Shown here: one piece after another, positions 1 through 20,000 of the stretch
How the letters are laid out: the number at the start of each line of letters is the position of its first letter
Numbering within the stretch: the first letter of the stretch is position 1
DNA from: Raillietiella orientalis
Taxonomy: Eukaryota
Reading direction: 5' to 3'
DNA length: 20,000 nt
Assembly: GCA_036172245.1 (NCBI GenBank)
Contig: JAYWIR010000021.1
Coordinates: forward strand, 3,346,645-3,366,644
The notes under the pieces: generated by a model
What the model saw: the letters and a program-made list of their open reading frames with translations, nothing else
Told to the model about the DNA's origin: nothing
Databases searched by the model: none
Translations under genes and position numbers: made by a program

Positions 1-140
1 CTTTCTGTTTTTCGAATGGTTGTGGTTGGTTTTCCCGTAAATATTTTTCTGTTCTTTCCTTTTTTTCTGTATGCGATGATCTGAAATGCATTGTGTTCAT
101 TTGTCCTTGTATTCGATGTACTTGATCTGTATAGTAGGAG

Positions 141-422
141 CTAGTCTGCCTCTTTCGCATGCTTGCTGGTCTCTTTGTGGTGAGGATTTCCTTTGGCGGT
201 TTCGGCGGGAGCTCTTGAGAAACGTTGGATTCGTTTTATCTGAGGTATCGTGGAGGGTATCGCTGTTTGGAAGCATCCCTGGAGATGCGGGGTTGCTGTT
301 GAGCTTCCTTCTTCACCGAGGATTGCGTGCTTTCCTTTTCGAAGTGACCTTTCCTGCGTTTGTTCTGCGGTTGTCCAGTTGTTTGAGGTGAAGCACCGCC
401 GCGTGCACTTTGCGTACGGCAT
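141..422 (-). pseudogene. rep: CRESS-virus replication initiator (Rep) HUH endonuclease domain, degraded
   Basis: MPYAKCTRRCFTSNNWT resembles RCR motif I (WCFTLNN); KHAILGEE..TPHLQGCF contains motif II (PHLQG); RAPAETAKG resembles RAHxExAKG; motif III (YCSKE) is decayed to HAKE; premature TAG at 141-143; a QGQ-like stretch follows in another frame. Confidence 0.85.
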
Positions 423-620
423 GTTGGAACTCTTTGGTGCGGGTGTTTTCGGTTTGATACGGTTTTGAAAGTGCCGAGGTCAGGGTCACCCTCTGCTGTT
501 TCCAAGTGGTTTTTGCGTAGTCGGTGTCAAATTGGAGGAATGTGAGGGTCAGGGGGTTCGTATTCTCTTTGTTCCCTTCATTTTGGAATGCATTAGGATA
601 CAAGAGGTTGCGGTGTGAGG

Positions 621-950
621 ATGCCTGTTGCAACACGTGCACCTCATCGTGCTGATCTTAGGAATGTTTGTTTACGTAAACAGCGTCGTAGACGTCGTGC
701 ATTGCATTCTCCTGGTAATCATCGTAAGCGTAATTCTATGAGGAGGCGCGTTAATGATCGTGGCAATTTTGGACGTGCTTCCTCCTGGATTGGGAATGTG
801 TTGCGTTCTGGTGCGCGTATTCGGTTTAGGGATTTCGGTTTCACGGAGGGTGCTTATACTGTTCGTCAAGAGCTGAGGCCTGTTGGCAGTGAAGGTTATT
901 ATGCCGATTTCCATAATAACTTTGCAACCACTTACGGAAACTTTTTCTGA
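621..950 (+). pseudogene. cap: Putative CRESS-virus capsid N-terminal part; broken remnants may extend to ~1140
   Basis: ATG at 621; Arg-rich N-terminus (RKQRRRRR...RKRNSMRRR) with many CGT codons; divergent from rep as in Circoviridae-like genomes. No recognisable capsid fold motif. Confidence 0.6.
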
Positions 951-1141
951 TCAAAAAGAGTCGAATGTGTTGAATTCTGAAGTAGGTGGAGACTATATAT
1001 GTAGAATAATTATGTTGTTGTGACAAATCCCGGATAGGAGGAAGATTTTGCGAATATGAAAAATCATGGTGATTCCTAAGGAATGTGGAATCAGCTGACT
1101 TGGCAGCAAAACAGATCTCCTGTGTTTCGTAAATTCTGCCT

Positions 1142-2706
1142 GAGGAAGCGCCGGGTGCCTTGGCGGTCGCATTCGACCTTCACAAGACGTTCGATTGCGT
1201 AAACCAAAGACTCCTCTTGGAGCTCTTGGAACGCCTCGGTCTCCCGGCGCAACTCCTGCATTACTTGCGCGCTTGCTGGCGCCACGCGCTAACGTGCATT
1301 TCTTTTAGTGGCTGCCACGTGTACGGTATTCCCGTACCCAGGAGCATCAGGCAAGGCGACAGTTTAAGTCCGTTGCTCTTTAGCATCTTGTTTGAGTTGG
1401 TGCTGAGGGCGTATAGGGTGACGCTGGAGTACCGGCCTAGCTCATGCCCGGGAACGCCTGCCGTGGCTGCCTACGCTGATGACTTGCTTCTTCTGCTCCC
1501 CATGTCCACCCCGACGTCCAGTGTCGAAGATTTCTTCGAACTGATCCGTCGGGTGCGGTCGTGAGCGTCAACAGAGGAAAGAGCGTGGTCGTTCCTGTGG
1601 GAGCGTCGTGGGAGGGGCAGCCCGACTGGATCCGCCTGGGGATCCACACGGCAGGGTATTTAAAGTACCTTGGAGTTCCGCTGGGCGACTCGGCACAGCC
1701 GAGGCGTCGTCGGGCTGCCTTCATAAGGCAGAGTTGGCCGCCAGCCCGTTCATTAAGGGCAGGTTTACCTTGCCGGAACGGGCGGCTATCAGAAATACCT
1801 TTGTGGCCCCCCTCCTCCGCCCCCCGTTTTTTGTTTTGAACCCCCCTTACGCGGCCAAAGAGCGGGCAAAACGCCTGCTAAGGAACGCTCTCTGGGGTCC
1901 GGGGCGATCCAGGATCCTCCTGAAAGGCCTGACGGCTCCATGTCGCGATGCCGGTCTTGGTATCCTGACGATGGAGCGGATCGGACTGCAAGTGCAGTTT
2001 CGGATGCTGGCACTGTGTGCCGAGCTATGGACTTCTCCCCTGTGTGCGCCCGCGCGCATCCTCCTACGGAGGTGTGCCGGAAGCGAAGGACTTCTTTCCT
2101 TGCTGCCAGGCATGCGTCACAGGAGACAGGGATTTGGCTATCCTTTGAGGCAGCTCACCACCTTGTTGGAAGCAAATAGATGGATTTCCTGCCGCCCAAT
2201 GAACTACAATGCATGGCGGCAGGAATCCATTGATTCCTTGGCTGCATTCTTAGGAATGAGCCACGAAAATCTTAGCCCCCTGCGTCACTTTCAACCTTGG
2301 TCACTCCAAAATGTGATGCAGGACGAGGTGAGGTTTTCCGCTTTGGCCATCACGCCCCTTGCCGAAGCATTGTCTGTCCTCGAGGTTCGAGAAGACAGTA
2401 GCCATCCGGGAAGGTGGGAGTTCTCCTGCACCATTGCAGGAAGAACGAAAGCACTTGTCCAATGGGCCACGAGCGAGCTTGCGGATGCCGCCACCCCTCG
2501 TGCTACGCCAAAAGGGTTACTTCGGTGGGGAGAAACTCTTGGTGTTGGAGGAACTTATAATCCCTCCCTGGTGTTTGGACGGCTCGGTGTTTCCCCTTGC
2601 ATGGAAGCAAGACGTCTTGCTCTTCTTGCACTGGGGCTTGCGCTACAACGAACGGCGCCACCGAGCTTGCGGTGGGGTGGCTTCACCCTACTGTGCACGA
2701 TGCGGC
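1142..2706 (+). mobile_element. Tx1/L1-type non-LTR retrotransposon fragment A: ORF2 RT domain to zinc finger, truncated at both ends, frameshifted
   Basis: AFDLHKTFD, IRQGDSLSPLLF, AYADD, VNRGKS, KYLGVPL, DAGLGI, then LHWGLRYNERRH..CARCG across ORFs 1160-1564, 1561-1839, 1608-2756 and 2359-2814. Confidence 0.92.
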
Positions 2707-2806
2707 CCACCTCCGCCGTGGTCGCACGCGTTTTTGGTGAGCTCCAGCGAGCGTAATCAAAAGCAGTTTTTTGTGAGTGCGGAAGTGCGGTCGTTGGAGG
2801 GCAGAA

Positions 2807-4440
2807 ATGCCTGAAGACGCCGCAACACCTGCGACGGGAGACGTGAGGCCCACGTCTCCCCAACCTATGGAGGTGGGGTCATGCCCCACCAGAAAATCAG
2901 CCCCCGCCACCCCGGCGAGGGCGTGGAACAAGGTGGCAGCGGCGGCTCCGCCGGACGTGGCCGCCGAAGTGCAGGCCTACATAAAGGAGGGCTACAACCC
3001 AGCCCTCCTTTACAAGGTAGGAAATCTTTATTCTCCGCTTACCACGCGGAAATTTGGAAACGCCATCCGTAGGATGGGAATCTCTGACGAGGAGATTCTT
3101 TGCTTCTCGATTCGGAGCGGCGGGCAGTTCGCGGAGCTGATCTGCAAAGATGCAGCGCTCACACACAAACTGCTCTGCACGCCCGTTCCGTTCGAAGGGC
3201 GGAATCTCCTCCCACACACGGTGGATCACTCTATGGTGATCCACCTCACTGGTACAACGGTGCGGATGACCGAGGAAGCCATCCGCACTGAAATCAACAA
3301 GTTCGCGGAGATATACGCGATGTGGTCGAAGCCCAACGCCTTTACTTATCGAGGCGCATTCAGTGGGCGAGTTGCCGCACGCGTAACTCTCCGCGAAAAC
3401 AAAGAACTTTTCCACAAGCTGGAGGTCAACGACGAGCTCGTCGACCTCTGGTACGTGGGGAAGGAAAAATACTGTGGGCTGGGCAACACATTCGGGCATC
3501 TTAAAAAGAGATGCCCGGATGCCACATGCCCAACCTGCGGCGCGAAGGGCCACACTAGTGCTGTGTGCCCGAAAAACGCCGCGACAACGCCTTCAGCCCC
3601 TTCGACAAATGAGGGGAAGAAGGCAGAAAACAAAAAAACGAGCGACCAACAGCCGACCTCAGAAGAAGTCGTGCAGAAGGAGCAGGAGTCTCAAGAGAAG
3701 ACTTCTGAACCAACTGCCGACGAGGAAAACTGGAAAGTCGTTTCAAACAAAAAAGCAAAAGAAACACACAAAAAACAAAAACTCCAAAAAAAAATAATAA
3801 TAATACAAATAAGAACGCGAGCGTTCCCAAAAAACCCGCGGTCGGCAAACCAAAAATTTCGCCGCGCGAGTCCATAAAGGAATGCCGCGTTAACATCGAG
3901 CGCGTTCCGTCGATCGAGCGTCGATCGGCGAACGCGACTCCCGCAACCGTCGCGAACGCCGCGGAACCGCCGCAGGAATCCTGCGACAAACACGCGAGTA
4001 GCAGCGACGAGAAAAACTTCGCGAAGGCGGCGGAGGAACTCGCGGCCACCTTAATGCAGCCGCCTAAGGCTGCAAAGAAGGCCGTCAGACGTCCGGCGGA
4101 AGTTAAGGGCCCGGAAACTTCCGGGTCCGAGGCAGAAGCCGGAAACCCTCCCACCGTCGCCCTTCCGAAGAGGAAGGCGGGCCGGAAGTCGCGCAACCCT
4201 CTGCGCATCGCTCCCCCTCAGGCTGAGGAGGAGGAGATGCGCTCGGATAGCGAGGAGGCGATGTCCGCGAGGTCGCGGGATCCCTCTATCGACAGCATCC
4301 GGTCGGTCCTTCCTATCGACCTCAGTCCGGCTGCAGACGTTCCGGTCGTTGCCGAAACGCCACCACCGCAGATGGACAACGACCAGCCGCCTCCCGAACA
4401 GGAGGCGGCAATACACACGCCACCACCATCATTAGTATGA
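2807..4440 (+). pseudogene. ORF1 gag-like nucleic-acid-binding protein with two CCHC zinc knuckles (copy B), one frameshift
   Basis: ATG 2807; YCGLGNTFGHLKKRC (first knuckle has lost a Cys) and CPTCGAKGHTSAVC; frame change in the A-rich tract ~3745-3795 into the frame of ORF 4054-4440; colinear with the copy G ORF1. Confidence 0.88.
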
Positions 4441-5326
4441 TGCGTGGAATCGCCTCTTGCCGGCAGCTGCGTATAGCCTGTTGGAATGTCAACGGGCTGC
4501 GTAGCGAAAGCAAGAGGCGTAGCGTGGCCGACACCCTGCGACCTTTCGACCTGGCACTTCTCCAAGAGGTGCATGCCCTCAGAGCAGAGGACGTCCAGGA
4601 AATCGAGAGGCTCACAGGGGGGAGGCTACTTTGGCGTGATGGAGGAGACCACTCCCGCGGAGTGGCCTTCCTGCTGAAGCCGGCCGTCGCCAATGCGGTG
4701 CGCAGAGCACAGTTCGACGAGGAAGGTCGAGTAGGACAACTTGTCCTCAAGTGGTCCGAATCGATCGACCTCGTAGTTACGAACGTGTGCGCGCCCTGCA
4801 CCAGCCACAGGCGCGCAGAACGCACTGCGTTCTTCGAAGCCCTGCGGCGAGACTGGCTGGCCGAAGCAGGCGTGCGGCGGGCGCATCTGATAGCGGGAGA
4901 CTTCAACGTCCGCCTGCTGTCGGAAGCGCCCGACATAAGAGCACAATTGGTCAACGAGTTGTGTGCGGCTATGCACACACGCAACTTGTTGGCCGATGAA
5001 GCCGGGGTGAGAAGCAGAATCGACCACGTGTTCCTCGATAACCACTTGTGTACGCGGGTGGGGACTCGAGGAGCAATTGCGTCGGAGCTGTCCGATCACC
5101 CTCGGCTAGTAAACAACATCCATCCGCGCGACAGAGGTCCACCCTCCGAAGCGTGGCGCCTGCCGGGGGACTGGTTGCGACTCGCAGGAGCACGCGAACA
5201 TCTGCGCGCATTCCTGCGTAGTTGCGAATTGCAGACTCTCGCTGACTGGGACAAAATAAAACGCTCAGTCCGAGAGTTCTGTGACCAGTTTCCCCTCCAT
5301 CAACTTCCTCCAGGTTTCGGCGATGC
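4437..5326 (+). pseudogene. ORF2 N-terminal APE-type endonuclease and linker (copy B), truncated before RT
   Basis: WNVNGL, LLQEVH, GVAFLL, NVCAP, IAGDFN, SRIDHVF and SDH motifs, plus L1/Tx1-like linker WDKIK..REFC. The last codons of ORF 4437-5354 run into the 3' end of copy C. Confidence 0.93.
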
Positions 5327-6946
5327 CACCCGGATACGCCGGGACGTTTATTAAAAACATTTCAACAGTCAATACAGAACGTGGTACAAGGCCCCACTGA
5401 CGGCCACGCAATACCGGAACTGCCGGGACACTGGGACGCAGCCCGGTGTGGCTCTCCTCGGCAGTGGAGGGGGATGGGGGAGAAAATAAAAATAAAATAA
5501 AAGAGAAAAACAAACCACAAAAAAAAAAAAGTTTGGAGGGCCGGGAAGGGATCACAGAAAACTGCTGGGAGCGCCCATCCTTTGCAGGATGCCTTCTAGT
5601 TCCATTTTCAGTTTTCCTAGATTGGGCCATCGGGTAGCTCTCTGCAGGAAGCGAGAAGCATACTCGATGACGTCCCTCACGATGCAGTCTTCATCTTCGG
5701 CATCACTCCAGGCCGCCACGATACCACGAATGCAGCAAAGTGCTGCCAGGGCTGCGGCTGGACTGAGGGCGTCCCGCACGAAGACAAGACTGAAGACACA
5801 TCCAACATTGCCACCATCCGGTATCCGGAGGGCCGTTTTCAGACGATCCCAAAGAATCTGGACGGCAGGGCATTCAACTAAGAGGTGGGGGAGCGACTCC
5901 CGCTCCCCACACCTGGCACACGCAGGATTTACTCTTCCCCGCGTCCAGTGGAAGCGGCGCGCGTTGCAGGGTAGACCCCAATGCAGCCACAGAAGCGCCG
6001 ATTCTTGCCACTTCAGGGGAAGAATCCTGGATCCAAGTAGAACCGGGGGTCACTTCAGGTCATCCAATCGGATGCCGAGCAGCTCGCCCCATCTTCTTAA
6101 TCCACGCGGCTGGAGACTAGGGGTCGTTGCATCTGTCAACTCTCCCATGGTCCAGCCGCTCATCATCTTCTCTCTGCCTGCGATACGGCAGCAGACTTGC
6201 CACCTTGGCTTCCGGCTTTCGTGAAGCACCCTTTGGAGGAAGGGCATCGCCGTAACAAGGGGTGCGCCTTCCGCCCACGTGTAACTCTGTGGAAATTCAA
6301 GAATTTCACGGAGAGTTCGGCGGGCGTAAAAGCCGACTCGCAGGCAGTTCATCCGGTCTTCGCACCTCTGGTTCTGCTTGGCCCAGGTGCCAACAGTCTC
6401 TTCCAGCCAAGCGGAGGAGTTGGCAGGGCCACAAACCATCCAGTCGTTCTCCTTTGCCAGGGTTGCCATGCGGCCGAGCGGTAGACCGCATCTTCGAATC
6501 TTCCGGCCAGGGCACAGAAGAAACGATGCAAGTCCTTCGCAGCGGGACACACGCCTGGCCAGGAGGCGGGCCGGAATGCATCGAGCGGTGCTCCACATCT
6601 TCGCTGTGATGGCGAGGGTCCGCCATCGCAGCTGCTTCTCCACGCGCTCCAGCGTCCGGATGCTGAGACCGCCGTCCCGACGCGGAGCGCACAAGTCCTT
6701 CAGAGGCAATCGGGGCCTCCCCTTGCCCCAAAGGGCGATACGGAAGATGTACTTTGTCCTCTTCTTCGATTCCACGGTGGGGGGGCAAACAAAAAGCAAG
6801 GGGCGGAGGATGAGGGCCGAGAAGGCGTTCCAAACCGCGGCCCGTTTCGGCAAGTGAAACTTCCCTTCCAGGAACGGGCCGATCGCCGTCTTGACTTTTT
6901 GGAGGCAGCTGGACCACGCTTCCGCAGGGGAGTAGTCCCCCAACGG
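5327..6946 (-). mobile_element. Tx1/L1-type fragment C: post-RT ORF2 C-terminus, zinc finger, 3' UTR and 3' end
   Basis: PLGDYSP..DGGLSI..LHWGLPCNARRFHW..CARCGERESLPHLLVEC; internal TGA at 6050-6052; ORF2 stop at 5552-5554; T-rich 3' UTR; AATAAA at 5347-5352; terminal hairpin at 5329-5343. Confidence 0.92.
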
Positions 6947-7270
6947 GCCATCGGGATGCTATTCGCAGAAAGCGAGCTGCAAACTCCATGCCATCCCTTC
7001 CGTTGACATCCTCTGCTTCGTCGGATCCACTCCAAGCTGCCACAATACCGCGAACGCGGCAGAGAGCTGCTATTACAGCGGCTGGCTGCAGGGCGTGCCG
7101 CACGAAGAGGAGCCGAAAAACGTCTCTGGGAAGGCTACCATTCCGGATCCCTAAGGTGGAACCGAAGCGTTCCCACAGGGGCCGGAGGGCAGCACAGTCA
7201 ACTAAAAGGTGAGGGAGGGTTTCCCGCTCCCCACACCGGGCACAGTTTGCGTTCACACTCCCCCGTGTCC
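6945..7270 (-). mobile_element. Tx1/L1-type fragment D, distal part (zinc finger and C-terminus)
   Basis: TRGSVNANCARCGERETLPHLLVDC..RIASRWP continues the ..HHWTRGS reading that ends at 10038; fused to fragment C over a 2-nt overlap at 6945-6946. Confidence 0.88.
7257..7270 (+). repeat. Left target-site duplication of copy G (ACTCCCCCGTGTCC)
   Basis: 13/14 match to ACTTCCCCGTGTCC at 10038-10051; removing the insert restores the host ORF2 reading. Confidence 0.88.
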
Positions 7271-7281
7271 TTCTAGGGAGC

Positions 7282-7288
7282 GGACGTG
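7282..7288 (+). promoter_or_regulatory. DPE-like GGACGTG motif in the LINE 5' UTR (variant GCACGCG at 2724-2730 in copy B)
   Basis: Matches RGWCGTG, known from internal promoters of arthropod LINEs; lies closer to the apparent 5' end than the canonical +28. Confidence 0.4.
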
Positions 7289-7364
7289 GTTTGGCATCGC
7301 TCCACGGACTGGTTAGTGGGAAGCTTTTCGTTGGTTGTCTGGTGTGTGGGAGCACCGGTGTCCC

Positions 7365-9081
7365 ATGGAAGAAATGCCTGAGGACACCGCGATGGAAGTT
7401 GGAGTAGGAGAAGCGACATGCTGTCCTCCATCAATGAAAGTGGGGGCATCCGCCCCCCCGGAATCCCTGGCACTTGCCCCATCGGAATCGGGGGCAACCG
7501 CCCCTTCGCGACCCTCTTCGCCATTGGCGAGGAGTTGGAGTGACGTCGTTGCTGCACCATCCCCGGATGCAGTAGCGGAGCAGACTGCCTACAAGGACAG
7601 CGGCTACAAGCCGTCTCTGATCTATAAGGTAGGCAGTGTGTTTGATGAAAAAATTGCACGCTCCTTCGAAATGGAGCTGCAAAGGTTGAACGTGAGGGAG
7701 GAAGACCTTGAAGGCCTATCCGTCCTTAGTGGAGGCCAGCGAGTTGAGCTGACATGAAAAGAGGCAAGTCTGGCGCAGCGACTGCTGAACACCCCTATTA
7801 CGGTGGACGGCCGCAGGATCTTCCCTGTGACGGAGGACCGCTCCGTCGTGATCCACCTCACGGGCGTATCACTCCGAATGGACAAAACCAGCGTCCATGA
7901 GGAGTTGTCGAAGCATAGTAGTGTGCACGCGTATTGGGCCAAACCCAATGTCTTCCGAACGTACGGAAGGCTATTCAGTGGGATGGCCGCAGCCCGCGTC
8001 ACCCTACCAGAGAATGGTGGGCTTCCCCACAAACTGAATATCGGCGAAGAAAAAGTCGCGGACGTACGTGGGTAAGCCCAAGTATTGTGGCCATTGCGAT
8101 GCTACAGGGCATCTAAAAAAACGGTGCCCTAACATCCAATGCCACTTATGTGGAAATAAGGGCCACATCCGTAAGGTGTGCCCAAGAAGAGAAATCCCGT
8201 CCCCATCCGCTGCCAAAAAGACAAAAGGGAAACGCACGGGAGAGACGCATACACAGAAACAGGCTGTAAACACCCAGATGTCAGTCCCTAAGCCCTCACA
8301 GCAAACGTCGGTTGAGAACACTCCCGACGACGCTGGTGACGGCGAAGGCTGGCAGACGGTACAGCCACGAAGAAAACCCGGGAGTCCCGAACGAAACGCG
8401 GTGAAAACAAAAACGCAGCGCGAAAAACCGTGCCGCGAAAAGCTCCGCGCGTGTTCAGTAAAATTAGGACGTGTGGAGGCACCCGATGCCGCCGCCGGGG
8501 GAGCAATCCCCCCCCTCGCGTCCGCCGAAGCCGCGACGGTCGATGGCGAACCCTCTGGGGAAACAGAGGGGGAACCGCGCGCCGCGCTCGACGCGATCGA
8601 GGAGGCCGCCTTCCAGCAGGCGGTGGAAGAAATCGCGGCTGAACTGCAAGGCCGTGAGAAGAACTCCCGGAAAGGCTTACGAAGGCCGGCCGCGAGGAAG
8701 GCTCCGGATGCAGGTGAGGCCGATCCGGATGCTGGAAGTGCGTCCTCCTCAACGGAGGCGCCACCAAAGAAGACGGGACGCAAGTCCCAGAATCCCAGGA
8801 GGCGCGTACGGATCAAGAAGGAGGAGGATGAACTGGCACTCGAGGGGGAAGCCGGCAGCGTGGGAGGCGAGGGTGGGAATCTCTCATTTCAAGACACCGT
8901 GCAGCTGGCGACCCCCATGGAGGAGGAAGTACAGGTGGGTGAAACCCCCCTTCCTCTGCACGGCCCTGACGAAGACTCGGCCCCCATGGAGGAGGGAGAA
9001 GCGATGCGCGACGCACCCCCTCCTCCTAGCGTCCCGCCAGACAAGGTGGCGGGAGCCCCATTGCCACTTTCCCAGGATTAA
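7365..9081 (+). pseudogene. ORF1 gag-like protein with two CCHC zinc knuckles (copy G)
   Basis: CGHCDATGHLKKRC and CHLCGNKGHIRKVC; premature TGA at 7755-7757 (Cys in copy B); frameshift near 8064. Confidence 0.9.
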
Positions 9082-9819
9082 CACCTGGGCTCGCCTGTCG
9101 CCGTAGGATCCGCGTAGCCTGCTGGAACGTCAACCGGCTGCGCGACGACGGCAACAGGCGGGATACGGCCGACACCCTGCGCGACTTCGACCTGGCGCTC
9201 CTGCAGGAGATTCACGTGATCACCGCGGAGAACGCTCAGGAGATCGAGAGGATCGCAGGGGGTCGTCTGTTTTGGCAGTGAGGCGCTCGCAACACCTGTG
9301 GCGTCGCCAGAAACACTTGGGCGGAGACGACCCCACTGGCCACGGCGCTGCCCTTCCTACGAAGGGAGCTTCAAAACAGCCGGAAGCCGAGATGGCAAGT
9401 CTCCTGCTGGATAGCGGGCAAGGAGAAGGATCTAAGCGGGTGGACAATAAAGGAACTGGCAGACGCCGCAACCCCAAGCGTTCACCCGCATGGAATACGG
9501 AGATGGGTCGAGCTGTTTGGCATCCCGGCGGATAATTACCCTAGAGTGGCCCCCGTTATTTAGAGACGCATCCACCCTCCCCCTCAAGTGGCAGGAAACG
9601 GCGCTGTTGTTGTTGCACTGGGGTCTTCCCTGCAACGCGCGCCGCCACCACTGGACGTTGGGGAACGTGGGACAGAACTGTGCAGTGTGCGGGGAGAAGG
9701 AATCCCTCCCCCATCTGTTAGTGGACTGCGCTGCCCTCCGGCCCTTGTGGGAACGTTATGCTACGACCCTCCCTATGCCGGTCGGCAGTACCGAGGGAAA
9801 GGATAGTCTCTTCCTCTAG
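9081..9819 (+). pseudogene. Internally deleted ORF2 of copy G (endonuclease N-terminus joined to C-terminal zinc-finger region)
   Basis: ACWNVNRL..LLQEIH..GVA is joined at GCC (9306-9308) to RNTWAETT..; later LHWGLPCNARRHHW..CAVCGEKESLPHLLVDC. Confidence 0.88.
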
Positions 9820-10037
9820 CGGGTTGTGATCCCTTCCCGGCCCCCCAAATAGTTTCTTTTTGTTATTTCATTTATTTTTCTTTTTGTTTCACCCCCTATC
9901 ACCTCCGCTGCCGAGGAGGACAAGCTGGCCTCAGAACCGGCTTCCTGGCAGGTCCCATGAAATATTGGCCGTAGCGGGGCCTAGTACCTCAAATGCAAAG
10001 CGTTTTTTAATAAACGCCCCGGCGTGACCGGGTGAAA

Positions 10038-10051
10038 ACTTCCCCGTGTCC
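10038..10051 (+). repeat. Right target-site duplication of copy G (ACTTCCCCGTGTCC)
   Basis: 13/14 match to 7257-7270. Confidence 0.88.
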
Positions 10052-11240
10052 AATGGTGGCGGCAAGCATTGCAGGGGAGTCCCCAGTGCAACAGCATCAG
10101 CGCCGACTCCTGCCATTTTAGGGAAAGGATGCTTGTTCCAGTTATCACTGGAGGCCACTTCAGGTCATCAGTCGTGATGCCGAGCAGCTCGCCCCATTTT
10201 CTAAGTCCTTGCGGAAGGACGCTATGGGTTGTGGCGTCCGCCAGCTGTCCCATTGTCCAAACGCTGAACAATTTTTCTCTGCCTGGGATACGGCAAGAGA
10301 CTTGCCACCTTGGCGTCCGGCTGCTGACGAGGGCCCTACGTAGGAAGGGCAGCACCGTCGCCAGGCAGGTCGTCTCTGCCCACGTGCTTCTGGCTGGACA
10401 CTCCAGGATCTCGCGTAGAGTGCAGCGGGAGTATCTGCCCCGCCGCAGGCTATTCCACCTCTCGTGGCTCCTCTGATTCACTACCGCCCACGTGCCAACT
10501 GTTTCTTCCAGCCATGCGCTGGAGTTGACGGGGCTGCGGATCATCCACGCATTCTCCCTCGCCAGGGTGGCTCCTCGGACGAGTAGAAGGCCGCATCATC
10601 TTGTCTTCCTTTCACGACATAGAAGAGATGCGAGTCCTCCCGTTCCGGATGCACGTCTGGCAAGGAGGCGGGCAGGAACACACCACGGGGTGCTTCACAA
10701 CTTCGCTGCGATGGCCAAGGTTCGCCATCGCAGCCGAATTTCCATGCGCTCCAGCGTCAGGAGGCCAAGACCACCATCACGACGCGGAGCGCACAAGTCC
10801 ATCAAAGGAACTCGGGGCCTCCCCTTGCCCCAAAGGGCGATGCGCAGGAGATCCTTTGTACTTTTTTTCATATTCATGGGGACGGGGCAAACAAAAGTAT
10901 TAATGAAGGATAGGGGCCGCAAAAGCGTTCCATACTGCGGCCCGTTCCGGCAAGTGGAACTTGCCCTCCAGGAACGGGCGAATCGCCAAATCCACTTTCT
11001 GAAGACGGCCTGACCATGCTTCTCACGGGCAGAAGTCTCCCAGCGGAACGCCAAGGTACTTCAGATGTGTGCCCGTCGGGATCCCCAGGCGGATCCAGTC
11101 AGGTCGTCCTACCCACGTCGCTCCAACTGCCACCATCGACGATTTTGCCCTGTTGACCCGTGGCCCTGTCCCACGGCTTAGTAGGTCGAAGAAATGTTCG
11201 ACCGCCGTTGCCGGAGCGGACATTGGGAGCGGGAACAGCC
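10038..11240 (-). mobile_element. Tx1/L1-type fragment D, proximal part (end of RT to zinc finger)
   Basis: LPMSAP..VNRAKS..DWIRLGI..LKYLGVPLGD..DGGLGL..LHWGLPCNACRHHWTRGS with several frameshifts; closer to C than to A. Confidence 0.9.
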
Positions 11241-11850
11241 GGAGCGAGTGCCCGGCAACAGCGAGAGCAGTCCTCCGCTGCCGGCGCATCTCCTCAGGAG
11301 AATGCGTGCAGGCACACACTGGGGGGTTGTCCACAGCTCGGCACACAGTGCAGCAGTCGGAACTGCTCCTGCAGTCCGATTCGCTCCATTGTCAGGATGT
11401 CCAAGCCAGCATCTCGACGTGGAGTTCCGAAGACTTTCAGGCTGATCCTGGATCTCGCCGGTCCCCAGAGAACGTTCCTAAGCAGGCGTTTAGCCCGCTC
11501 TTTTGCCGCGAAGGGAGGTTCTAACAAAATAAACAGGGGGTGGTGGAAGGAGGCCACAAAAGTATTATAAACAGCCACCCGTTCCATCAAAGTAAACTCG
11601 CCGTTAATGAACAAGATGGTGGTGGACAACTCTGCCTTCTGAAGAAAGTCCGACCACGCTACGGCTGCGCCGATAGCGCCCAACGGAACGCAAAGTACCC
11701 GACCGTAGGGATCCCCAGGCGGATCCAGACTGGATCCGCCTGGGGATCCGGACTTCCCGTCCCACGACGCACCCACTGGAACAACCACGCTGTTCTCTCT
11801 GTTGATGAAAAATTGCAGCGTCGTCCCACAACGATCACAGAACGCCCTCA
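11241..11850 (-). mobile_element. Tx1/L1-type fragment E (end of RT and thumb region), same subfamily as A
   Basis: VVPVGASW..AAKERAKRLLRNVLWGPARSRI..DAGLDILTMERIGLQ closely matches fragment A; homology is clear to ~11806 and weak to ~11850. Confidence 0.88.
11709..11749. repeat. Perfect 41-bp palindrome (20-bp arms, 1-nt spacer)
   Basis: GGATCCCCAGGCGGATCCAG-A-CTGGATCCGCCTGGGGATCC; absent from homologous A and D. Confidence 0.95.
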
Positions 11851-11904
11851 GTAATCTACCCTTTTTCCAAGCAAGTTCTGTCTGAAACGTCCCTGCCTAC
11901 CGTT

Positions 11905-12337
11905 TAACAGCACTGCAATGATCGCAGCAATTACCGCATATGCAGAAACGTTAGCACGATCCAAGACATACAATAGGCACTTTGTATACAACTTGGAGAA
12001 TGTGCCTTAATTCTCAAAGTCTCCTTCTTCTGATGCTTTCATCGCAGCTACGTCATCTTGATGTATTGCATTGCTCTTTCCAAATAATGGACCAAGTTGG
12101 AAAAAGAGAGCAAAAAGCAGAGTTGCCTAATATGAAAATAGCAGTAATTGGCAAGTGGTGCGTAAATTGCTAAAGAACTCCAGGCCAAAATAGAAGAGGA
12201 GAAAATACTATGATTTTCACCAATGTGGATGTCAAGATCGGCCGAAACATATGCGTTGCAGCAGCAGTAAATGCACCCTGCAAAGGTGCTCCCTTAATTA
12301 CTTTACGATCAGCATATTCACTTACTACTATTGCATC
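11905..12337 (-). pseudogene. Bacterial AcrB/AcrD/AcrF-family RND efflux permease fragment (Rickettsiales-like), decayed lateral transfer
   Basis: DAIVVSEYADRKVIKG..MFRPILTSTLVKIIVFSPLLFWPGVL*QFTHHLPIT.., then after a frameshift GPLFGK..MKASEEGD..LYTKCLLYVLDR; matches the RND TM4-TM6 region; stops at 12170-12172 and 12007-12009; AT-rich relative to flanks. Confidence 0.85.
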
Positions 12338-12438
12338 TAGAGTGACGCTCCATTTCATATATTAATTATGTTTTTGCAAGTTGGCCTGCGATATTTTTGC
12401 AGTCGTCGTCTATAAATTCTAAATTTCAGAAATTGTAC

Positions 12439-12522
12439 CGTATTAATGGCACGCCGGAAGCTAAAGGCTTCAGCACCTCTTAATTCTCCAACTAGTATTC
12501 GATCTGGCCCAAGTCTTAAGCA
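12439..12522 (-). pseudogene. virB11: Type IV secretion ATPase VirB11 fragment (Walker B region)
   Basis: 28 codons [28 protein letters not shown], close to the VirB11 motif [29 protein letters not shown] as I recall it from Rickettsiales; too short for the ORF track. Confidence 0.87.
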
Positions 12523-12529
12523 TAGGATG

Positions 12530-12698
12530 TTTTTTGTTCTCAGTCCCCACCTCCCACACCCATTTGGAACCTACAGCTTTCCTGGCATGCGAACCGTTGG
12601 TGTTTTTGAGTTTTGCTTTTTGGTAGGCTTCAGCGGGAGGAAGCAACTGTTCCCTGCTTGTTCATGGAAATAAACGTCCCCTCGTGACAGGGAAAAAA
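12530..12698 (+). mobile_element. Solo 3' UTR and 3' end of a related Tx1/L1-type element
   Basis: AATAAACGTCCCCTCGTGACAGGG-A6 mirrors the termini of C and G; upstream T-tract, CACCTCC and GAACC..TTCCTGGCA blocks are shared with the G 3' UTR. Confidence 0.72.
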
Positions 12699-13058
12699 CT
12701 TCATGCCAAACATTGTCGTGAATTCCTTCTCGAACGGGAGAGGTTGGGGTGCAGGAGAGAACATTCGGACGTGTAGTGCGCGCGAGCTCAACAGCATTGC
12801 ATTGTCCCCGCGCGCAGCATCCCTCCATTAGCCTCCTCCTCTGCAGAAAGAGTCGATAGGCTTTCTTCTTGGTTCTGGAAGCGGCATTTGAACGGACGAA
12901 GGCAGTGAGCGGTTCCCCGCGTCTCGCCTCTCCATTGCTTTTCCTCGGGTCGCACACCCCGTGCCTGCTGTCGTCAGGCAGCCGTCGACGCACGCTGAGC
13001 GCCTCCGGCACGGGACATGGGTCTGACAGAGGACCTGCGTATGCTTGGTTTTCCGCGG

Positions 13059-14160
13059 GTTCGCTGCTGGCGATTGTGCCTCTGCAGCATCAGGAGTGCA
13101 CAGAGTGCTACCATCAGGGCACCTGCCTCTGGTGCCTCTCTCACCTCAACTGCGTTGTTCGCAGGGGCACCTTCGTGGATGGGTGCGGCTTCGGCGTCTG
13201 CTGCAAAGTTCAGGCACGACACCCGCCCGGCTGTTCCAGATTTTCGCACCCTGAATCCGGATCCCAGTGTTCATCACGTGGAATCGCACCATCTCTGCCA
13301 ACAACACGTTCTCTGTCAACACACTGGAGGTCGTGTATGCTAAAGGAACCTTCCAGGAAAAGCTAAACAAAGGCGACTCGTCCGCGTTCCAGTAGAGATA
13401 TGCGGAAAGGGAGGACACGCGGTGAATAAGGAGGATCTGGAGGATGGAAGCACGGAGACATACGCCAATTCCCCCCCCCCCCATTGCAGGAACGACGGCG
13501 TGCCCATTGCTGCATAGCGGTGGGAGAGCATGGCAACTGGTGCGTTGCCAAGGTGGAGTGCGCCCTGAGATCACCAATCGCGTGCCTTCTGTGCAAGGGG
13601 GAACTTTGCAGGAATGCCACAGTAGGTGGCATGTGTCTGCATTCAACGGGGGCGCATATCCTTCCGAATCTGTCGCCTCCACAACTCCTTTCCTCCGGCA
13701 ACTTCGAAGGCAGAACCGGGAACGCACGGCCCTTCGTGCTATCTCTGGCACTGCACGATAAAGGCATCTGCTGAACGGATTCGCTCTCCGTTTCTTCCGG
13801 AGGGAAGGGTCCAGCCATCCGCTACCTCTGAAATGCGCTTCGAACAAGAGCAACCACTTTGAGCAACCGTCGAGGTCCCTCTCTCCGATTGCCTTTCGGC
13901 AAATGTGCGTCCGCGTTTTACCGGATGTCCGGAAACTCGCTTGCATGCCTTGCTTGAGGAAAAAGGGGAAGAATGGGAGACGTCTGTCCAGAAATTCCTG
14001 CTGGACGGCGGCTTCCTGCCCGACCATCCTTCCATTGTACGTCCCTTCCGACACGGACGTTTATCAACACATTATTACGGCGACCTTGGGGTCCTTGTCC
14101 ATGGACCTCATTTGCATGTGGATAATCCGAATACTGCAGATGCACCTATTGCGCCTGGCC
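13059..14160 (+). pseudogene. Decayed paralog of the neighbouring CUB-domain gene
   Basis: Exon remnants 13059-13208 (SLLAIV..GTCL..GFGVCCK), 13268-13397 (130 bp, same length as the paralog exon, TAG at 13393-13395) and ~14036-14160 (LYVPSD..WIIRILQ); splice sites mutated (GCGG and CAT acceptors, TT and AT donors). Confidence 0.8.
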
Positions 14161-14527
14161 TGGACTCGTTCGTTCTTTGCTCTTCCGAAAGGAATGCGAA
14201 AAGCGAAGTATTATCCCAGTATGTAGAATCCCAGGAGCTCGATATGAAAAGTATTGTAAGGCGAGTCCATCTGGCCTTTGCGTTCGATTCTTCCCACCGC
14301 ACCATCCACGAGGTTTCCTCAGCTCTTCCGAAATCACGCAAACAGCAGCGACATCGCAACGCCGAATATTTCATTTTCAACCTTAAAGTGCCTATCTGCA
14401 CCGAATACATGAGCATCCTCAAGCAGCATCACGCCCATTGCATGTGGTTCGCAGCAGTTATCCTTGCAAACCTCCGGCGGCAAGAGTCACAGTCCTTTCT
14501 CAACCCACGAGAGGTACAGAGCAAACT

Positions 14528-14533
14528 TTTATT
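14528..14533 (-). promoter_or_regulatory. Polyadenylation signal AATAAA of the CUB gene
   Basis: Starts 24 nt after the TAG at 14558-14560. Confidence 0.65.
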
Positions 14534-14557
14534 GCTATACCAGATATCAGCAGATCA

Positions 14558-17500
14558 CTAATTCACTTGATTGTACATGAGGTTGAACCCAACGTTCCTC
14601 GCCATGGTCATCACAGCGTTGTTTGTTTTGATGTGCAGCATGAATGGAAACACGGCAGCTGAAAGCACAGATGACTCCGAAAACCTATACTGATCGTTAT
14701 CTTACTGCACACTTGAGATCCAGCATTCATCCCAGTTACAGCGTTTAGCCAATTCCCGCAGAAACGCTCTTGCGTGCACATTGGGTTGGCCGCAAGAACA
14801 GCAGCCTGAGCACCACCGCAAGGGATGATAAACGCATCGTTGACACAATTTGCTGCTACACTGTTGCTCAAGGAAGTCGCAGCAGTCGCGTCAATCGAGA
14901 AACCAACGTCGGCCATGTTGGGTATCGCATTCAAGCACAACGCCCTGGCTCCAGGGGTAGCCCTCACACACATCGCGTATTCCAGGTTGGTATTTAGAAC
15001 CGACATGACGTTGTTCATCCAGCCAAAGGATACGATCATACCTGTGGCCTCAAGGAAGTACTGAAGGCATCCGATGGGAGCTGCAAATGAGAAAACACTT
15101 TGAATTCACCCCACTCTATCCGCATCGCAGTGAGGATGCGATAGGGTGTTCTGTGAATTAACTGTCCGCTTCCATTTCAACATATAATTTGGCACAACCC
15201 CTTCATTCCGCTGGGAGTTTTTGCTATTGCACAGACCAATGCAGCGTCAAGGAAGCTGCGAACCCTCCACTGGTCATGGAGTCGACCGACCTCAGCAACA
15301 ACCAAAAGGCGGGACATGCCATCGTCAAACAGGAAACCCCTGCCGTCAGCTCCGCCGCTCGCATTGCGAAATCGAATGGGAGTTCCCAACAAATTTACTG
15401 CTCTTTCCTTGCGACATTCTTTTTTCTAAACTACGGCATGCACCATGTCCCTTTTAATTGCACGTTCGGTGTCTCGCGGGAGGGAGAATGGGGTGGTACG
15501 CGTAAAGGGATATTCGCGGCAGCCATTGCCACAACGGTGCAACCTCCTACAGCGCGTGGGACAGGAAGGGCAGAGCTTTCTTTGGGTGGGTAGCCAATTC
15601 GACGAAGCATGGAATGGGACGGTTCCATCCACTTACCCAGATACTCGGATCCGGATTCGATCTGCAACACACGGATGGACCAGGATCTTATTTCCATAGG
15701 CATCGCAGAGGCGACCGTGATGACTAGCATAACTCCCGTCGTTGCAGCGTCCATCCTCACGTACACTAAAATCCAGAAGAGGGGGGGCTTAACTATGCCA
15801 GCTGGCATTGGGGTTCTGTGTCTTCTGATTGTACTTCAGTCAAGCTCTTTTGGCCAATATCCGCAGCGACTTCACGGATATGTGTCCAAGAGCCCGGCAC
15901 CGCTGATTCATACCAGCGGACACACGCCGACATGCCACGTAGGCAAAGACAGCAGTGGCACCCTCTTTTCCGAATTCGCTTCGGGACTCTAACAGATGCA
16001 CAAAAACAGGAAGACCTTTCGAGGGTGCAGAAATCTTTCGGGACTGTGTCACCAACCTACGTCCCTTTCACCAATACACTTTGGGAGGACAACCCCCGTG
16101 GTACGAGATCAGCACCGCGGATGGCAAGAGCGATGTTTAGCTAACATTTCCAGGGACGTTTGGTTCCCATTCCTGCAGGACTGTTGCTTGGATTTGCTCT
16201 TCTATCTCTAAAACCGCAGAAAGCCAACAGCAGCATTGCAAGAGAGAAGCGTTGGTCCGGCAGACTCGAGCGCGAGAGATGGGAGTCGGCTCTCCGCATC
16301 CCCCTCTGTGGTGCCGCACACGGCAAGCGAACCGACGATCTTCAGCGGTCAAGCCGCGCCGAAGATTGGCAGCGCTGTTTCGGAAGACGTACTCAATTCA
16401 GCGGCTTCCTATGACTACGGTCTCACACGAATGGCGCCAATGCTGGTGCTTGCCACTTACCAGCGACCAAAATAGTTACTTACGGTGATTGTTCGGGTTC
16501 GGTCCGCAAATCGAGGAAGGGATGCTTTGTAAAGATCCGCTACCCATGGGCGTTATCACCAACGAATCCGGGTCGCATTGCCCGGTGGTACGCACTGCTG
16601 ATCGAAGAGTCAGGGGCTGTAGTTCGATCCTGAAATTCACAGGTGCTTGTAAATCAAATTCTCCTCTGTGTCCCTGCTTTGCCACCGAAAATTGACCCCG
16701 TACATCCCAGCAGGGAACAAACAGCGCTTGTGCGAGAGGGAAGTGCGTGATGAAGAAGCGCGGTCAGCAGTCCCTCGGCTTTTCTCACTGTGCATCAAAC
16801 AAACGAGCGGTGCCTTCATGCCGGGAGCTCTTGAGGCAGCTCCTTCTCATTGCATGCGACCTTTCTCCCCCAAAATAGGCTTCCTGCGGTATCTTCTCCC
16901 GCAGCTTGTGCTTCCCTTTGGGCTTCCTGACCTTTACACGTATTCTGATTCCCGATGGCTACCAAGCACGTGTACAAGCTCATACCCTTCGGTTCCGCGT
17001 TTTTCCGGCTTCACAATTGGTGGACGTTCGTTTTCCATTCTCGCAGGAGGAGAAATGCAGAAAGAATTCTATTTATGCTTTGCTTTATAGAAGGGTGTTG
17101 CCGCACCCAACAGTATCGTGGAATCTCACTCCCCCCTACAGCGTGGCGCCTGTCGTAAACTTCCACAGCAAAACTGCCTGATGCTGCATGCAAGTGGATG
17201 CGCTTCCCGTGGAAACGACTTGCTCGTCCGTCTTAGCGTTCGTGTTTTCCAATGTGGCGGCAAGAACTGCAGATCGACTTCGGTTGACGGTGTTTGCGAT
17301 CGTCTTCCCGGTAGGGTCCTCATCCCAACGGCTGCTTGGCTTCTCTACCTCAAAAGCCACGTCTGGAGCGGAGACGTTCATCGGCGTAGCCAAATTTGAC
17401 AGACACTTGGGAACCATCGTGGGTGAAACGAATGTCGATGGACAAGATGCTGCTCACAGCTACCAAAAGGGAGGCTTCGCAGGCACTGAAGCCTTTTACG

Positions 17501-18716
17501 ATTCGATGGTGATCAGCAACCATTCCAGGATCAGTGGGCTCTCTCGCGCTGTGAGATGACGAGCTGCTTGACGAGCGAGACTCGCGTCATCCTCCATTGT
17601 GTAGCTAATTGAGATCCTATTCCGTTGCCTACGTTCTCTTTCAGCACACTACTCAATATTCGAATAGAACCGAATTTCCGAAGGTCGTCCGTTGCCCGGG
17701 GATCCACTTGTGGGTTCGAACTGCTCCCTCGTCCTCACCTGAACTGTTGGATACGCGAGTTGAGTTTCTGGACCGTCGCTTGGCATGTCCCTCCGGTCGT
17801 TAGGACGTCCGTCGTGTTCTCGAAGTACGTATTGTTTATTCTTGAACTTTGCCCGCATCCAAGTATCACTTTGGAAGTTTGACCATTTTCGGCATGGGAT
17901 CATTGCGGGTCTTACCTATGCAGCAAACACCGATCCCCAGGGCGCATTGACCATTCCTCAAACCACCGGCATTTGAGCACTCTCCAGGAGGAAGGCACGT
18001 CCCGTTGCGCGAGTTGACGAAGCAAGGCGTGTTTTGTATCCGCACTATTTGCATCAGTGAACCTGAAGAGGAGGACGAAATGATGAGTACTCGGTGGTGA
18101 TCCCGAAACGCCATTTACGTTTGCCACGAAAATCGTGCCCGTCGAAGAAAGCGTCATTGGGTGTCATCGCTTGACACTGTCGGCGAAGTTCCAGTTGCAC
18201 GCGTTTTGAGGAATGCTTTCAACAGGAATGGTTTCGATCGTCCAACGAGGTCATACGCTGGCGTGGGAAGGATTGGGAAGAAGCACGTGGAGGGAACATT
18301 CGGGAATAAGGAGATTGAGGAGGTGCACGACTTCGATTCCTCTCGTGCTTCGCCCTAGGCCACCTGACTGAGGACGAATGGCTGCACTCAGCAGGCGCGT
18401 TCTTCTCGAACTGGCAAGCACAGAGGAATCCGTGCAAGAGGGCAGCTGCCCGACGGCATGTGCGCCTCTGCAGCTCGGCCAAGTCGACTCGTTTGGCATG
18501 GCGGTGGTGAATGTGTGTGTGGATGTGTGCGAGTGGGTAGGAAGGTGGATGTGTGGATGCATGCGTGTGCTTGTGTGTTCGGAATAGCCTCAAGCGAAAA
18601 CGCGCAGAGGTCCGCGGAAGCACTCGTTACTTACGGGATTGGTGTCTTGAGGTTGTGTTTGCTGCTTCTCCCTGCATGCACGTCATGACGAAAATTCCCA
18701 AAATCCACGCACACAT
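14558..18716 (-). CDS. Secreted arthropod-type CUB-domain protein, 7 coding exons, 369 aa (386 aa if ATG 18767 is used)
   Basis: Exons 18635-18716, 17916-18062, 17739-17868, 16484-16629, 15637-15765, 14706-15080 and 14558-14658; all GT-AG and phase-compatible, 1110 nt in total; signal-peptide-like MCAWILGIFVMTCMQGEA; NGTC..EC..GG..G.CA.G.GVCC module; NNTYF, ICGPN, APIGCLQYF, RFCG and GFNLMY motifs. Confidence 0.9.
18503..18579. repeat. Degenerate (GT)n low-complexity tract in intron 1 of the CUB gene
   Basis: Interrupted GT/TG dinucleotide runs. Confidence 0.6.
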
Positions 18717-19806
18717 CTCGAAAATCGCGCAGCCACCTTGGTAACCACCTCGAGTTGTCAGCTCCATGGATGCAATTCCCTCGGTTTGCGGCAACCCTTA
18801 GATGAAAACCTCTCCGCAAGATACGTTTTTTGTGAACAAAATGATGTTCTTGAATGACAAAAGAGGAAAACGGTGAGGTCAGTTTTTTTTTTCTCCAATG
18901 TGCGTTTGTGAGTTTTTGTGTCTGCTGGGGATGCCCGTTATTCGGAAAGGGCCGGTTGTGGTTCCATGTTCTGGTGTCTGGGGAAATACCAGTGGATTTA
19001 AAGAAAATCATTTCGGTCTTTCAATTTTATTACATTAATTTAGAACTTTTGCTGGATCTTTCTCTGTAGGTCTGTTTCATGAGTAACAAAGACACTCTAC
19101 GGATTCGTATAGGGCAAAACAGGAGTGGTGTTCTTTTCTGCTCTGATCAAAGGACGCTCTCCAAGCAAACTCCTCGGTTCTCGCAAGTTTCGCAGGCAAA
19201 TGGTCAACTGCGCTTGCAGGCGAGCGGGCGACGAGACCTTCCAGAAGAATGGTATACGACGCAGTGCAGCCTTACTTTCCCATGTGCTTTACATGCTGAA
19301 CGTCCATTCACACTCAGTAGTCCATGTGGGGTAACAGAAAGTGGCAAAGGAGAAAAGCCTCACATGCGATGTGGCAGCATTTTTTATCGCGTTCTGAATC
19401 AAATGTGCGTTTTAGATAGCATCCGGAACGCGCATTTGATACCAACAGCCGGCCGTTTCTGTTCTGCTGCGAGCAGACTCTTTTGGTATTCGAATTGACC
19501 GTGTCAGTGTAGGGCTCGCGAATTGATGTGCCGTTCTACTGGTGTCTGAGGTAGCTGACGGGACTTTCCTTCCTAATGGAGTTTCAGCGAAGGTCTCCAA
19601 CATGATGGCAAAGGCGGTGGCAGGTGTCGCGTTGCAACGGGGACGGCTGTCCATCGAAGTCTGTCGAAGTGATGACCGCGTAGCTGCCCACGTCCACTTC
19701 GATGGCGGAATGGGGGATAAACGAAAGTTTTGTTCCTAACGTTTGTCCTGATTTTTTCTTTTTCTGCTGCGGGGCTCGTGTCTTTCAGCCCTTCGTGATG
19801 GCTTCC

Positions 19807-20000
19807 TTAATCCCGAATAAGGATTTGCATGACGGATTCGCTCTTCCTGTTGTCCAGAGGGATGGTGACCTGCGACCCGATGACGCTGAATTGCAGTTCC
19901 AACAAGAACAACCACCGTCCTTGACCCTCGCTCACTTCGCCGTTCCCGCAAACATGGTGTCGGCCTTTTCGACGATGTCGAGAATCTCTGTGGTGCTTAT
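19807..20000 (-). CDS. Probable last two coding exons of an unidentified upstream host gene
   Basis: Exons 19936->20000 and 19807-19885 joined by a 50-nt GTGAG..TTCAG intron give ..ISTTEILDIVEKADTMFAGTANVIGSQVTIPLDNRKSESVMQILIRD*. No family recognised. Confidence 0.5.
   Translation of the reverse strand, partial: KHHRDSRHRRKGRHHVCGNGEVSEGQGRWLFLLELQFSVIGSQVTIPLDNRKSESVMQILIRD

Follow-up and report, generated by a model that had tools for sequence, protein, structure and literature searches.

A chain of symbiont and LINE fragments in the genome of Raillietiella orientalis looks more like patched broken DNA than a new gene-import route

Composition of the chain

A 20,000-nucleotide (nt) stretch of the Raillietiella orientalis genome (contig JAYWIR010000021.1, positions 3,346,645 to 3,366,644 of the forward strand; hereafter the window) contains a minus-strand chain of seven co-oriented pieces, four of which derive from an intracellular bacterial symbiont and three (E, D and C) from truncated long interspersed nuclear elements (LINEs). 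The locus looks more like broken DNA that was patched than like a new route of gene import. We give somewhat better than an even chance to a decayed patchwork made at the level of DNA, in which the repair of a break captured symbiont DNA together with LINE cDNA. The route by which bacterial DNA enters animal germlines is still open, and this locus offers a clean test case, with base-level joints of a four-piece Lariskella-like insert and a close reference genome for each piece. It also records a transfer from Midichloriaceae to the host, as well as a LINE family nearly without database relatives.

Read 5' to 3' on the minus strand, the chain consists of virB11, a 26-nt filler, X, acrB, rpoC, E, D and C, and the pieces abut directly or via the filler (Table 1). 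The initial annotation of the window had described a shorter series (virB11 > acrB > E > D > C) ending in a single LINE 3' end and had proposed its capture through template jumping by the LINE reverse transcriptase (RT). The co-oriented minus-strand chain was borne out by tblastn with the LINE protein P0001 and by alignments, but the description was incomplete, as the rpoC piece, the non-coding piece X and the adjoining LINE remnant H had gone unmentioned.

Table 1. Features identified in the window, in order of position (ORF, open reading frame; UTR, untranslated region; aa, amino acids; G549, the Rickettsiales reference genome)
Feature	Position	Strand	Description and evidence
Circovirus-like (CRESS-DNA virus) Rep fragment, endonuclease domain	141..479	-	PF02407 Viral_Rep, E 0.0035, profile 3-73 of 82
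Arg-rich ORF, initially named cap	597..950	+	Putative; no homologue detected
LINE fragment A	1145..2811	+	RT to ORF2 C-terminus, 5'-truncated, without 3' UTR; P0001 aa 218-593 at 1145-2270; RVT_1 6.5e-11
LINE fragment F	2804..5326	+	ORF1 and ORF2 endonuclease domain; colinear with G 7371-9308; Exo_endo_phos 4.8e-14
LINE fragment C	5327..6946	-	5'-truncated; P0001 aa 396-619 at 6946-6278; zf-RVT; 3' UTR
LINE fragment D, 3' part	6945..7270	-	Aligns to C 5946-5624; CC common with C at joint
Target-site duplication of G, left copy	7258..7270		CTCCCCCGTGTCC
LINE G	7271..10038	+	5' end, ORF1, short endonuclease stretch, ORF2 C-terminus, 3' end; zf-CCHC, zf-RVT
Target-site duplication of G, right copy	10039..10051		CTTCCCCGTGTCC; 12/13 identical to left copy
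LINE fragment D, 5' part	10039..11247	-	P0001 aa 332-619 at 11238-10383; 74% nt identity to C over 1018 nt
LINE fragment E	11249..11827	-	Truncated at both ends; P0001 aa 352-555 at 11833-11199; subfamily of A, 76% nt identity
rpoC piece	11825..11904	-	G549 1,243,048-1,243,127, 75/80 (94%); TIGR02386 7.4e-7
acrB piece, RND/AcrB-type permease	11912..12337	-	G549 99,075-99,508, 356/434 (82%); 426 nt
Piece X, non-coding symbiont DNA	12336..12407	-	G549 1,547,052-1,547,121, 62/72 (86%)
Filler, AT-rich, 26 nt	12408..12433		No assigned source
virB11 piece (type IV secretion ATPase)	12434..12518	-	G549 925,863-925,947, 73/85 (86%); NF010475 2.2e-12
H, diverged 5'-truncated LINE 3' tail	12530..12698	+	Ends AATAAACGTCCCCTCGTGACAGGG followed by A6; head to head with chain

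Origin and decay of the symbiont-derived pieces

The reference G549 is a 1.6-Mb single-contig Rickettsiales genome which was obtained from an order-level search (83% identity, E 6e-27). When its DNA was compared with the whole window, four matches were found and none besides, and all four pieces lie on one strand of the reference, the three genic ones being in sense and in the direction shared by E, D and C. VirB11 (2.2e-12), a resistance-nodulation-division (RND) permease (6.6e-4) and RpoC (7.4e-7) were also recognised by NCBIfam, each on the minus strand, and the bacterial nature previously proposed for virB11 and acrB is thereby confirmed by family, protein and reference DNA matches. Taken in chain order (virB11, X, acrB, rpoC), the reference positions are 0.93, 1.55, 0.10 and 1.24 Mb.

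The acrB piece had first been sized at ~170 nt and proved to measure 426 nt, with two indels (a frameshift was seen by tblastn) and in-frame stops. It corresponds to codons ~399-543 of 1045 (to at least 531 by tblastn and to 543 by eye) and, along 55 aa, is 89% identical to one protein (E 2.9e-21) and 87% identical to another (1.7e-20); one of the two is named at NCBI 'Candidatus Lariskella endosymbiont of Epinotia ramella'. The next-best matches with source names were all from Midichloriaceae (64-73%). The virB11 piece covers codons ~232-261 of 337, sharing 21/28 aa with VirB11-size ORFs of 330 aa, while the rpoC piece shares 25/32 aa with RpoC 360-391 of G001 and carries an in-frame stop in place of a Ser. 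X corresponds to a site 470-540 nt ahead of groES-groEL in the reference, within a spacer of 1.1 kb that contains no tRNA or Rfam match and, at this site, no ORF >44 aa. No rRNA or tRNA is present among the four pieces, and the filler gave just a 17/17 match on the other strand of the reference, which is not significant (E 0.33).

Further searches added little. NCBIfam gave no credible family for 13 further small ORFs of 11659-12673, the protein search with virB11 returned nothing at E <=0.001, and a scan of genome contigs with virB11 found only generic type IV and type II secretion ATPases (10 loci, best 81% over 27 aa). Class-level searches for the donor were uninformative (196/401, 49/401 and 147/401 genomes matched; best full-length RND identity 47%) and a search for the TLC marker gave no match. 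From the protein and DNA matches, the donor is identified as a Lariskella-like symbiont of the Midichloriaceae.

Differences between the acrB piece and the reference number 14/142, 11/143 and 45/141 at codon positions 1, 2 and 3, respectively. As they fall mostly at the third position, the divergence must have arisen chiefly in the bacterial lineage, and neutral decay since the transfer amounts to at most ~6-8% (rpoC has 5/80 differences). The stops and indels indicate that the bacterial pieces are nuclear relics, and neither contamination nor reads of a live symbiont. In line with a nuclear insert of endosymbiont DNA, the pieces are pseudogenised, 82-94% identical to the reference at the DNA level and flanked by LINE fragments on either side, with partial read support.

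The LINE family and fragments C, D and E

The anatomy of the LINE fragments was worked out by mapping P0001 and the ORFs of the window itself back onto the window (tblastn and alignments). The family has a long ORF1 with a zinc knuckle, an L1-type endonuclease, an RT and a zf-RVT domain, and its 3' end is formed by a CCCGG...CCGGG hairpin and a very short A run. Among the solved structures, those closest to its endonuclease are human L1 endonucleases (3.8e-6). The label Tx1-like, which the initial annotation gave to the RT, is a provisional one. With the ORF of C as protein query, one homologue (P0001, 58% identity) was found among 4011 candidates, and a representative protein search gave 407 matches at E <=0.001, only three of them at <=1e-10 (best 57% over 106 aa). 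The family is thus nearly devoid of relatives in databases of billions of proteins. When full-length relatives were placed on the window, 12/13 gave some match, and the two that were inspected gave only 3-4 short matches each, a poor fit; a metagenome scan with a 4-sequence alignment detected no relative among 203 pattern matches.

As had been noted at the outset, C is the only member of the chain with a proper LINE 3' terminus, which reads ...AATAAACGTCCCGGCGTATCCGGGTG and lies at 5327; 165/235 positions of this end align with the 3' end of G. D terminates at the equivalent of C 5624, ~297 nt before the 3' end of the element, and E terminates earlier still. C, E and D begin 1620, ~1755 and ~1815 nt, respectively, from the 3' end (a spread of ~195 nt), having been truncated shortly after the RT segment that encodes YADD.

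A 41-nt near-perfect palindrome is present inside E (11709-11749) and, in comparison with A, represents a ~20-nt inverted duplication of adjacent sequence. From its sequence it is presumably the scar of a small fold-back or template switch.

Joints and flanks of the chain

Overlaps at the joints were read using reference sequence on either side of each joint. They comprise GA, possibly TAGA, between X and acrB, 1-2 nt between acrB and rpoC, GGG to GTGGG (3-5 nt) between rpoC and E, and CC (2-3 nt) between D and C, the last in agreement with the 2 nt initially reported. The joint of E and D can be placed only to within ~15 nt. Such short overlaps do not discriminate between mechanisms, as both end joining and template switching by an RT yield them.

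No duplication bounds the chain as a whole: no repeat of >=10 nt from the flank 5290-5330 was found at any candidate 5' joint, which upholds the corresponding statement of the initial annotation. G, by contrast, is enclosed in a 13-bp target-site duplication and its 3' end reads ...CCGGGTG AAAA, and it can therefore be regarded as an ordinary target-primed insertion that split D and that, as first stated, came later.

At its other end the chain meets H, a LINE remnant on the plus strand, so that the two adjoin by their 5' ends. H agrees with the terminus of G at 28/34 positions, and its ~180-nt alignments with the 3' UTRs of G and C score 47 and 50, against maxima of 39 and 43 in 300 shuffles. 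No flanking duplication of H was found.

Formation of the chain

Under the explanation we favour, loose fragments of Lariskella-like symbiont DNA (72-426 nt, from four distant places in that genome) would have been joined through microhomologies of 1-5 nt. Along with LINE cDNA pieces truncated at both ends (E and D), they would have become sealed either into a broken chromosome or between LINE insertion intermediates that had stalled. C and the opposite H would then be two outward-facing LINE 3' ends. G would subsequently have entered D through ordinary target-primed reverse transcription (TPRT), and the whole patch would have decayed. We infer that end-joining repair linked the pieces and that what came in from the symbiont was DNA. 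The non-coding nature of X and the lack of rRNA or tRNA fit a sampling of genome DNA and not of total RNA. The absence of a duplication at the chain or at H, together with the missing 3' ends of D and E, matches the published marks of non-classical LINE insertion. Joints of a deletion type, or not made by TPRT, are moreover general in the window, as they also include the joint of A and F, the cutting of F at 5326 and the internal deletion of G.

A number of observations weigh against this explanation. All four bacterial pieces are on the same strand, where the genic ones read in sense and run the same way as E, D and C, and random end joining would give a co-oriented bacterial block plus E with p ~1/16. 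A run of at least seven co-oriented pieces among 11 has p = 0.047 (96/2048), a merely suggestive value. C has the perfect 3' terminus expected of a TPRT-primed product. Finally, C, E and D begin at closely spaced points of the element, for which a uniform model, applied post hoc, gives p 0.004-0.013. This clustering may mark a hot spot at which the RT stops or switches, while being equally expected from a 5'-truncation hot spot in ordinary insertion.

It is these features that serial template jumping by the LINE RT would account for. In that case, a single TPRT event starting from the 3' end of C would have made at least six jumps (C to D, E, rpoC, acrB, X and, by way of the filler, virB11), copying in sense the RNA of other LINEs together with RNA or single-stranded DNA from the symbiont, an explanation we consider unlikely. 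It would explain why seven co-oriented pieces have their sole 3' terminus on the last one, why the four symbiont pieces are on a single strand with the genic ones in sense, as copying of RNA predicts, and why the junctions have short overlaps. In the available excerpt of the work on Magnaporthe, switching is reported to be site-preferred, in keeping with the clustered 5' ends, and double jumps and LINE-LINE mosaics are described (PMC2104539). An RNA route for the integration of bacterial sequence has also been claimed in human tumours (PMC3688693).

Against template jumping, the chain has no flanking duplication, and its 5' parts are all internal fragments, none of them a full-length copy of an RNA. 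X is non-coding and rRNA is absent among the four pieces. Ribosomal RNA makes up the bulk of bacterial RNA. The acceptor sites are internal to D and E and are not RNA 3' ends, and the 5' end of the chain meets the LINE tail H instead of unique target DNA. On the plus strand, A and F meet in a 3'-truncated joint that leads to no terminal LINE 3' end, and G is internally deleted. The number of jumps needed (at least six) also exceeds the one, rarely two, given in the accessible part of the published account (PMC2104539).

The proposal that the RT imported foreign sequence is upheld in so far as symbiont sequence does lie, in the same orientation, at a truncated LINE 5' end, but the missing duplication, the lack of any full-length RNA copy, the non-coding piece X and the absence of rRNA speak against it. 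It seems doubtful that, in one insertion or break repair, the RT crossed from LINE transcripts onto four one-strand symbiont fragments and so wrote bacterial sequence into the germline. If it did, the RT of a retrotransposon would be a route of gene transfer from symbiont to host. Should co-orientation and linkage to LINEs recur throughout the genome, capture driven by the RT would become testable; should they not, the locus would be a textbook case of break repair with symbiont DNA and retroelement cDNA as filler.

A stepwise origin, in which a larger symbiont insert and independent LINE insertions were whittled down by deletions and rearrangements and came to be co-oriented by chance, is in our view quite unlikely. 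Fragments do occur on both strands of the window (A, F, G and H on the plus strand, C, D and E on the minus strand) beside an endogenous viral piece, and later events are proven in the insertion of G and its internal deletion. Scattered Wolbachia fragments of ~150-180 bp and ~80% identity, described in the excerpted report on filarial genomes (PMC2882956), represent a known end state of such a process. However, the four pieces (0.93, 1.55, 0.10 and 1.24 Mb in chain order) do not follow the sequence of the reference within a single turn of the circle, so that the simple erosion of one inserted genome copy fits poorly, though the gene order of the donor may differ from that of the reference. At least three very large deletions would also have had to leave stubs of 72-426 nt abutting exactly with microhomology.

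It is very improbable that the chain is an assembly artefact, with reads of a live symbiont or different LINE copies having been misjoined. Repeats with a mutual identity of 72-76% do assemble with difficulty, and public read support consists of one run (X1) of thin cover, which contains 0.13 of the sampled words of the stretch, and no RNA run was listed; the bacterial joints are bridged by no listed contig. Yet the bacterial pieces have stops and indels and are 6-18% diverged from the nearest genome, and so are not reads of a live symbiont, while four clean microhomology joints inside 700 nt are atypical of a misjoin. Two contigs of this run, of 223 nt (bridging 7270/7271) and 207 nt (12126-12332, with 4 differences), also argue against an artefact.

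Altogether, 151 contigs of the run were placed on the window (105 at 90-95% identity, 34 at 95-99% and 12 at >=99%), and most of them come from other copies of the LINE. The 207-nt contig corresponds to the acrB relic, to which the reference is only ~82% identical in this region, and the run therefore contains either the relic or a very similar donor. The 223-nt contig (7145-7366) crosses the joint of D and G at ~92% identity, with 18 differences; either the composite of G in D is repeated or the LINE family repeatedly targets its own zinc-finger site.

Other arrangements were considered and rejected. Twin priming does not apply, as the two arms belong to distinct elements and a duplication is absent. 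A telomere-like array of head-to-tail copies was discounted because D and E have no 3' ends, and homology-driven recombination between LINEs because the joints are out of register.

Comparison with known systems

The features of template-switch chimeras, as given in an excerpt from Gogvadze et al. (2007, PMC2104539), are a full-length 5' part, a 3' part consisting of a 5'-truncated LINE, direct joining in the same orientation and short flanking repeats; in Magnaporthe, one tripartite element was listed there beside 33 bipartite ones. In the chain, the 3' part is a 5'-truncated LINE (C) with its own 3' end, and seven parts are joined in one orientation, with one 26-nt filler, but full-length 5' parts and flanking direct repeats are both lacking. 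The likeness to chimeric retrogenes such as U6/L1 (PMC2104539; Law & Burns, 2025 preprint; both in part) lies in foreign pieces being fused, co-oriented and with short overlaps, to the truncated 5' end of a LINE. The chain differs from what those extracts describe in having no duplication, internal 5' fragments, at least six joints instead of one or two and a bacterial source which includes a non-coding piece.

Direct precedents were found among non-classical, endonuclease-independent L1 insertions at breaks. The portion available of Sen et al. (2007, PMC1920257) describes these as having no duplications, truncation, deletions and, at 15/21 loci, 4-312 bp of extra non-LINE DNA. The chain resembles them in its lack of a duplication, its LINE pieces without 3' ends, its extra DNA, its microhomology and its multiple fragments. 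It shows the traits of a break-repair patch, with no duplication, D and E (C excepted) without 3' ends, ~0.7 kb of symbiont DNA plus filler and overlaps of 1-5 nt. Unlike the insertions covered in that portion, C has a perfect 3' terminus and the extra DNA is bacterial. In yeast, end joining places short organelle DNA (~45-200 bp) and retrotransposon cDNA into breaks (Yu et al., 2024, PMC11372161, in excerpt), so that short extranuclear DNA and retroelement cDNA both act as filler at one type of lesion, as they may have done here. In R. orientalis, however, the source is an intracellular bacterium and not the mitochondrion of the excerpted study, and the event is ancient and inferred.

With the relics of Wolbachia in filarial genomes (McNulty et al., 2010, PMC2882956, in part) the locus has in common short pseudogenised fragments of many genes, with ~80% identity and physically joined to the DNA of the host; near those fragments, remnants of retrotransposons and poly(A) tracts are sometimes found. 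It differs from the relics described there in its Lariskella-like donor and in the concatenation of four pieces from distant loci in a single orientation. Two L1 cDNA intermediates have been reported to be able to recombine (Mendez-Dorantes et al., 2026, PMC13526784, in excerpt). The chain is similar to the products of such recombination, and of twin priming (PMC1920257, in part), in that C lies on the left and H on the right with their 3' ends pointing outward and truncated 5' ends joined in the middle. In contrast to these published cases, as excerpted, the arms are different LINE copies, kept apart by E, D and bacterial filler of 0.7 kb, a duplication is lacking, and no sign of joining driven by homology is seen.

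Plus-strand LINE fragments and the remainder of the window

Repeat fragments crowd positions 1-12700, where G+C is 55-60% save for two A+T-richer islands at 1-1130 (0.455 G+C) and 11855-12522 (0.406 G+C). The Pfam LINE domains are RVT_1 (1133-1564), Exo_endo_phos (4251-5354), a weak zinc knuckle (8038-9081) and zf-RVT (9451-9819) on the plus strand, and zf-RVT (5552-6049) on the minus strand. To the right of ~12700, no credible Pfam family was found among 126 ORFs of 12574-19998. Rfam gave nothing at gathering score over the window and, over 11800-12720, only a chance match to a long non-coding RNA (E 0.8).

The C-terminal part of A matches G 9340-9807 and C 6109-5906, and its RT ORF had no match among solved structures. 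A and F are joined head to tail at 2804-2814, A being without a 3' UTR and F without ~100 nt of its 5' end relative to G. This joint is of the same kind as those of E with D and of D with C, yet has no terminal LINE 3' end. F ends at 5326, where it is cut by the 3' end of C, and it is not resumed to the right of the chain, as judged by P0001 mapping, alignments and Pfam to 19998. The missing continuation of F is compatible with a target deletion at the chain. The internal deletion of G is sharp (~9308/9315) and joins the early endonuclease domain to the C-terminal region of ORF2. CTTC comes after the A runs of both G and H.

Putative endogenous circovirus-like element

At the left end of the window, positions 141-950 probably represent an endogenous circovirus-like element, of the circular Rep-encoding single-stranded (CRESS) DNA viruses, with a minus-strand Rep fragment and a divergent plus-strand Arg-rich ORF. 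No relative of the Rep fragment was found among viral contigs, and no origin nonanucleotide motif was found in the element. The Arg-rich ORF had been named cap, an identity that is at best putative, as it has no match in Pfam, NCBIfam, Atlas clusters, viral contigs or PDB; its capsid-like traits are limited to an Arg-rich N-terminus and its divergent position beside Rep. It is indeed a plus-strand ORF next to A, as first stated, but the viral piece as a whole is ambisense and so not simply co-oriented with A. It had also been suggested that the RT imported viral sequence. With Rep antisense beside the ORF, as in a viral genome, the piece appears to be a stretch of such a genome and not a cap transcript, and so lends no support to the capture of viral RNA by the RT. 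The Rep fragment aligns with the Rep of porcine circovirus 2 (PCV2; 2hw0, E 0.012), its FTSNN and TPHLQG being matched to FTLNN and TPHLQG, which we take to be Rep motifs I and II.

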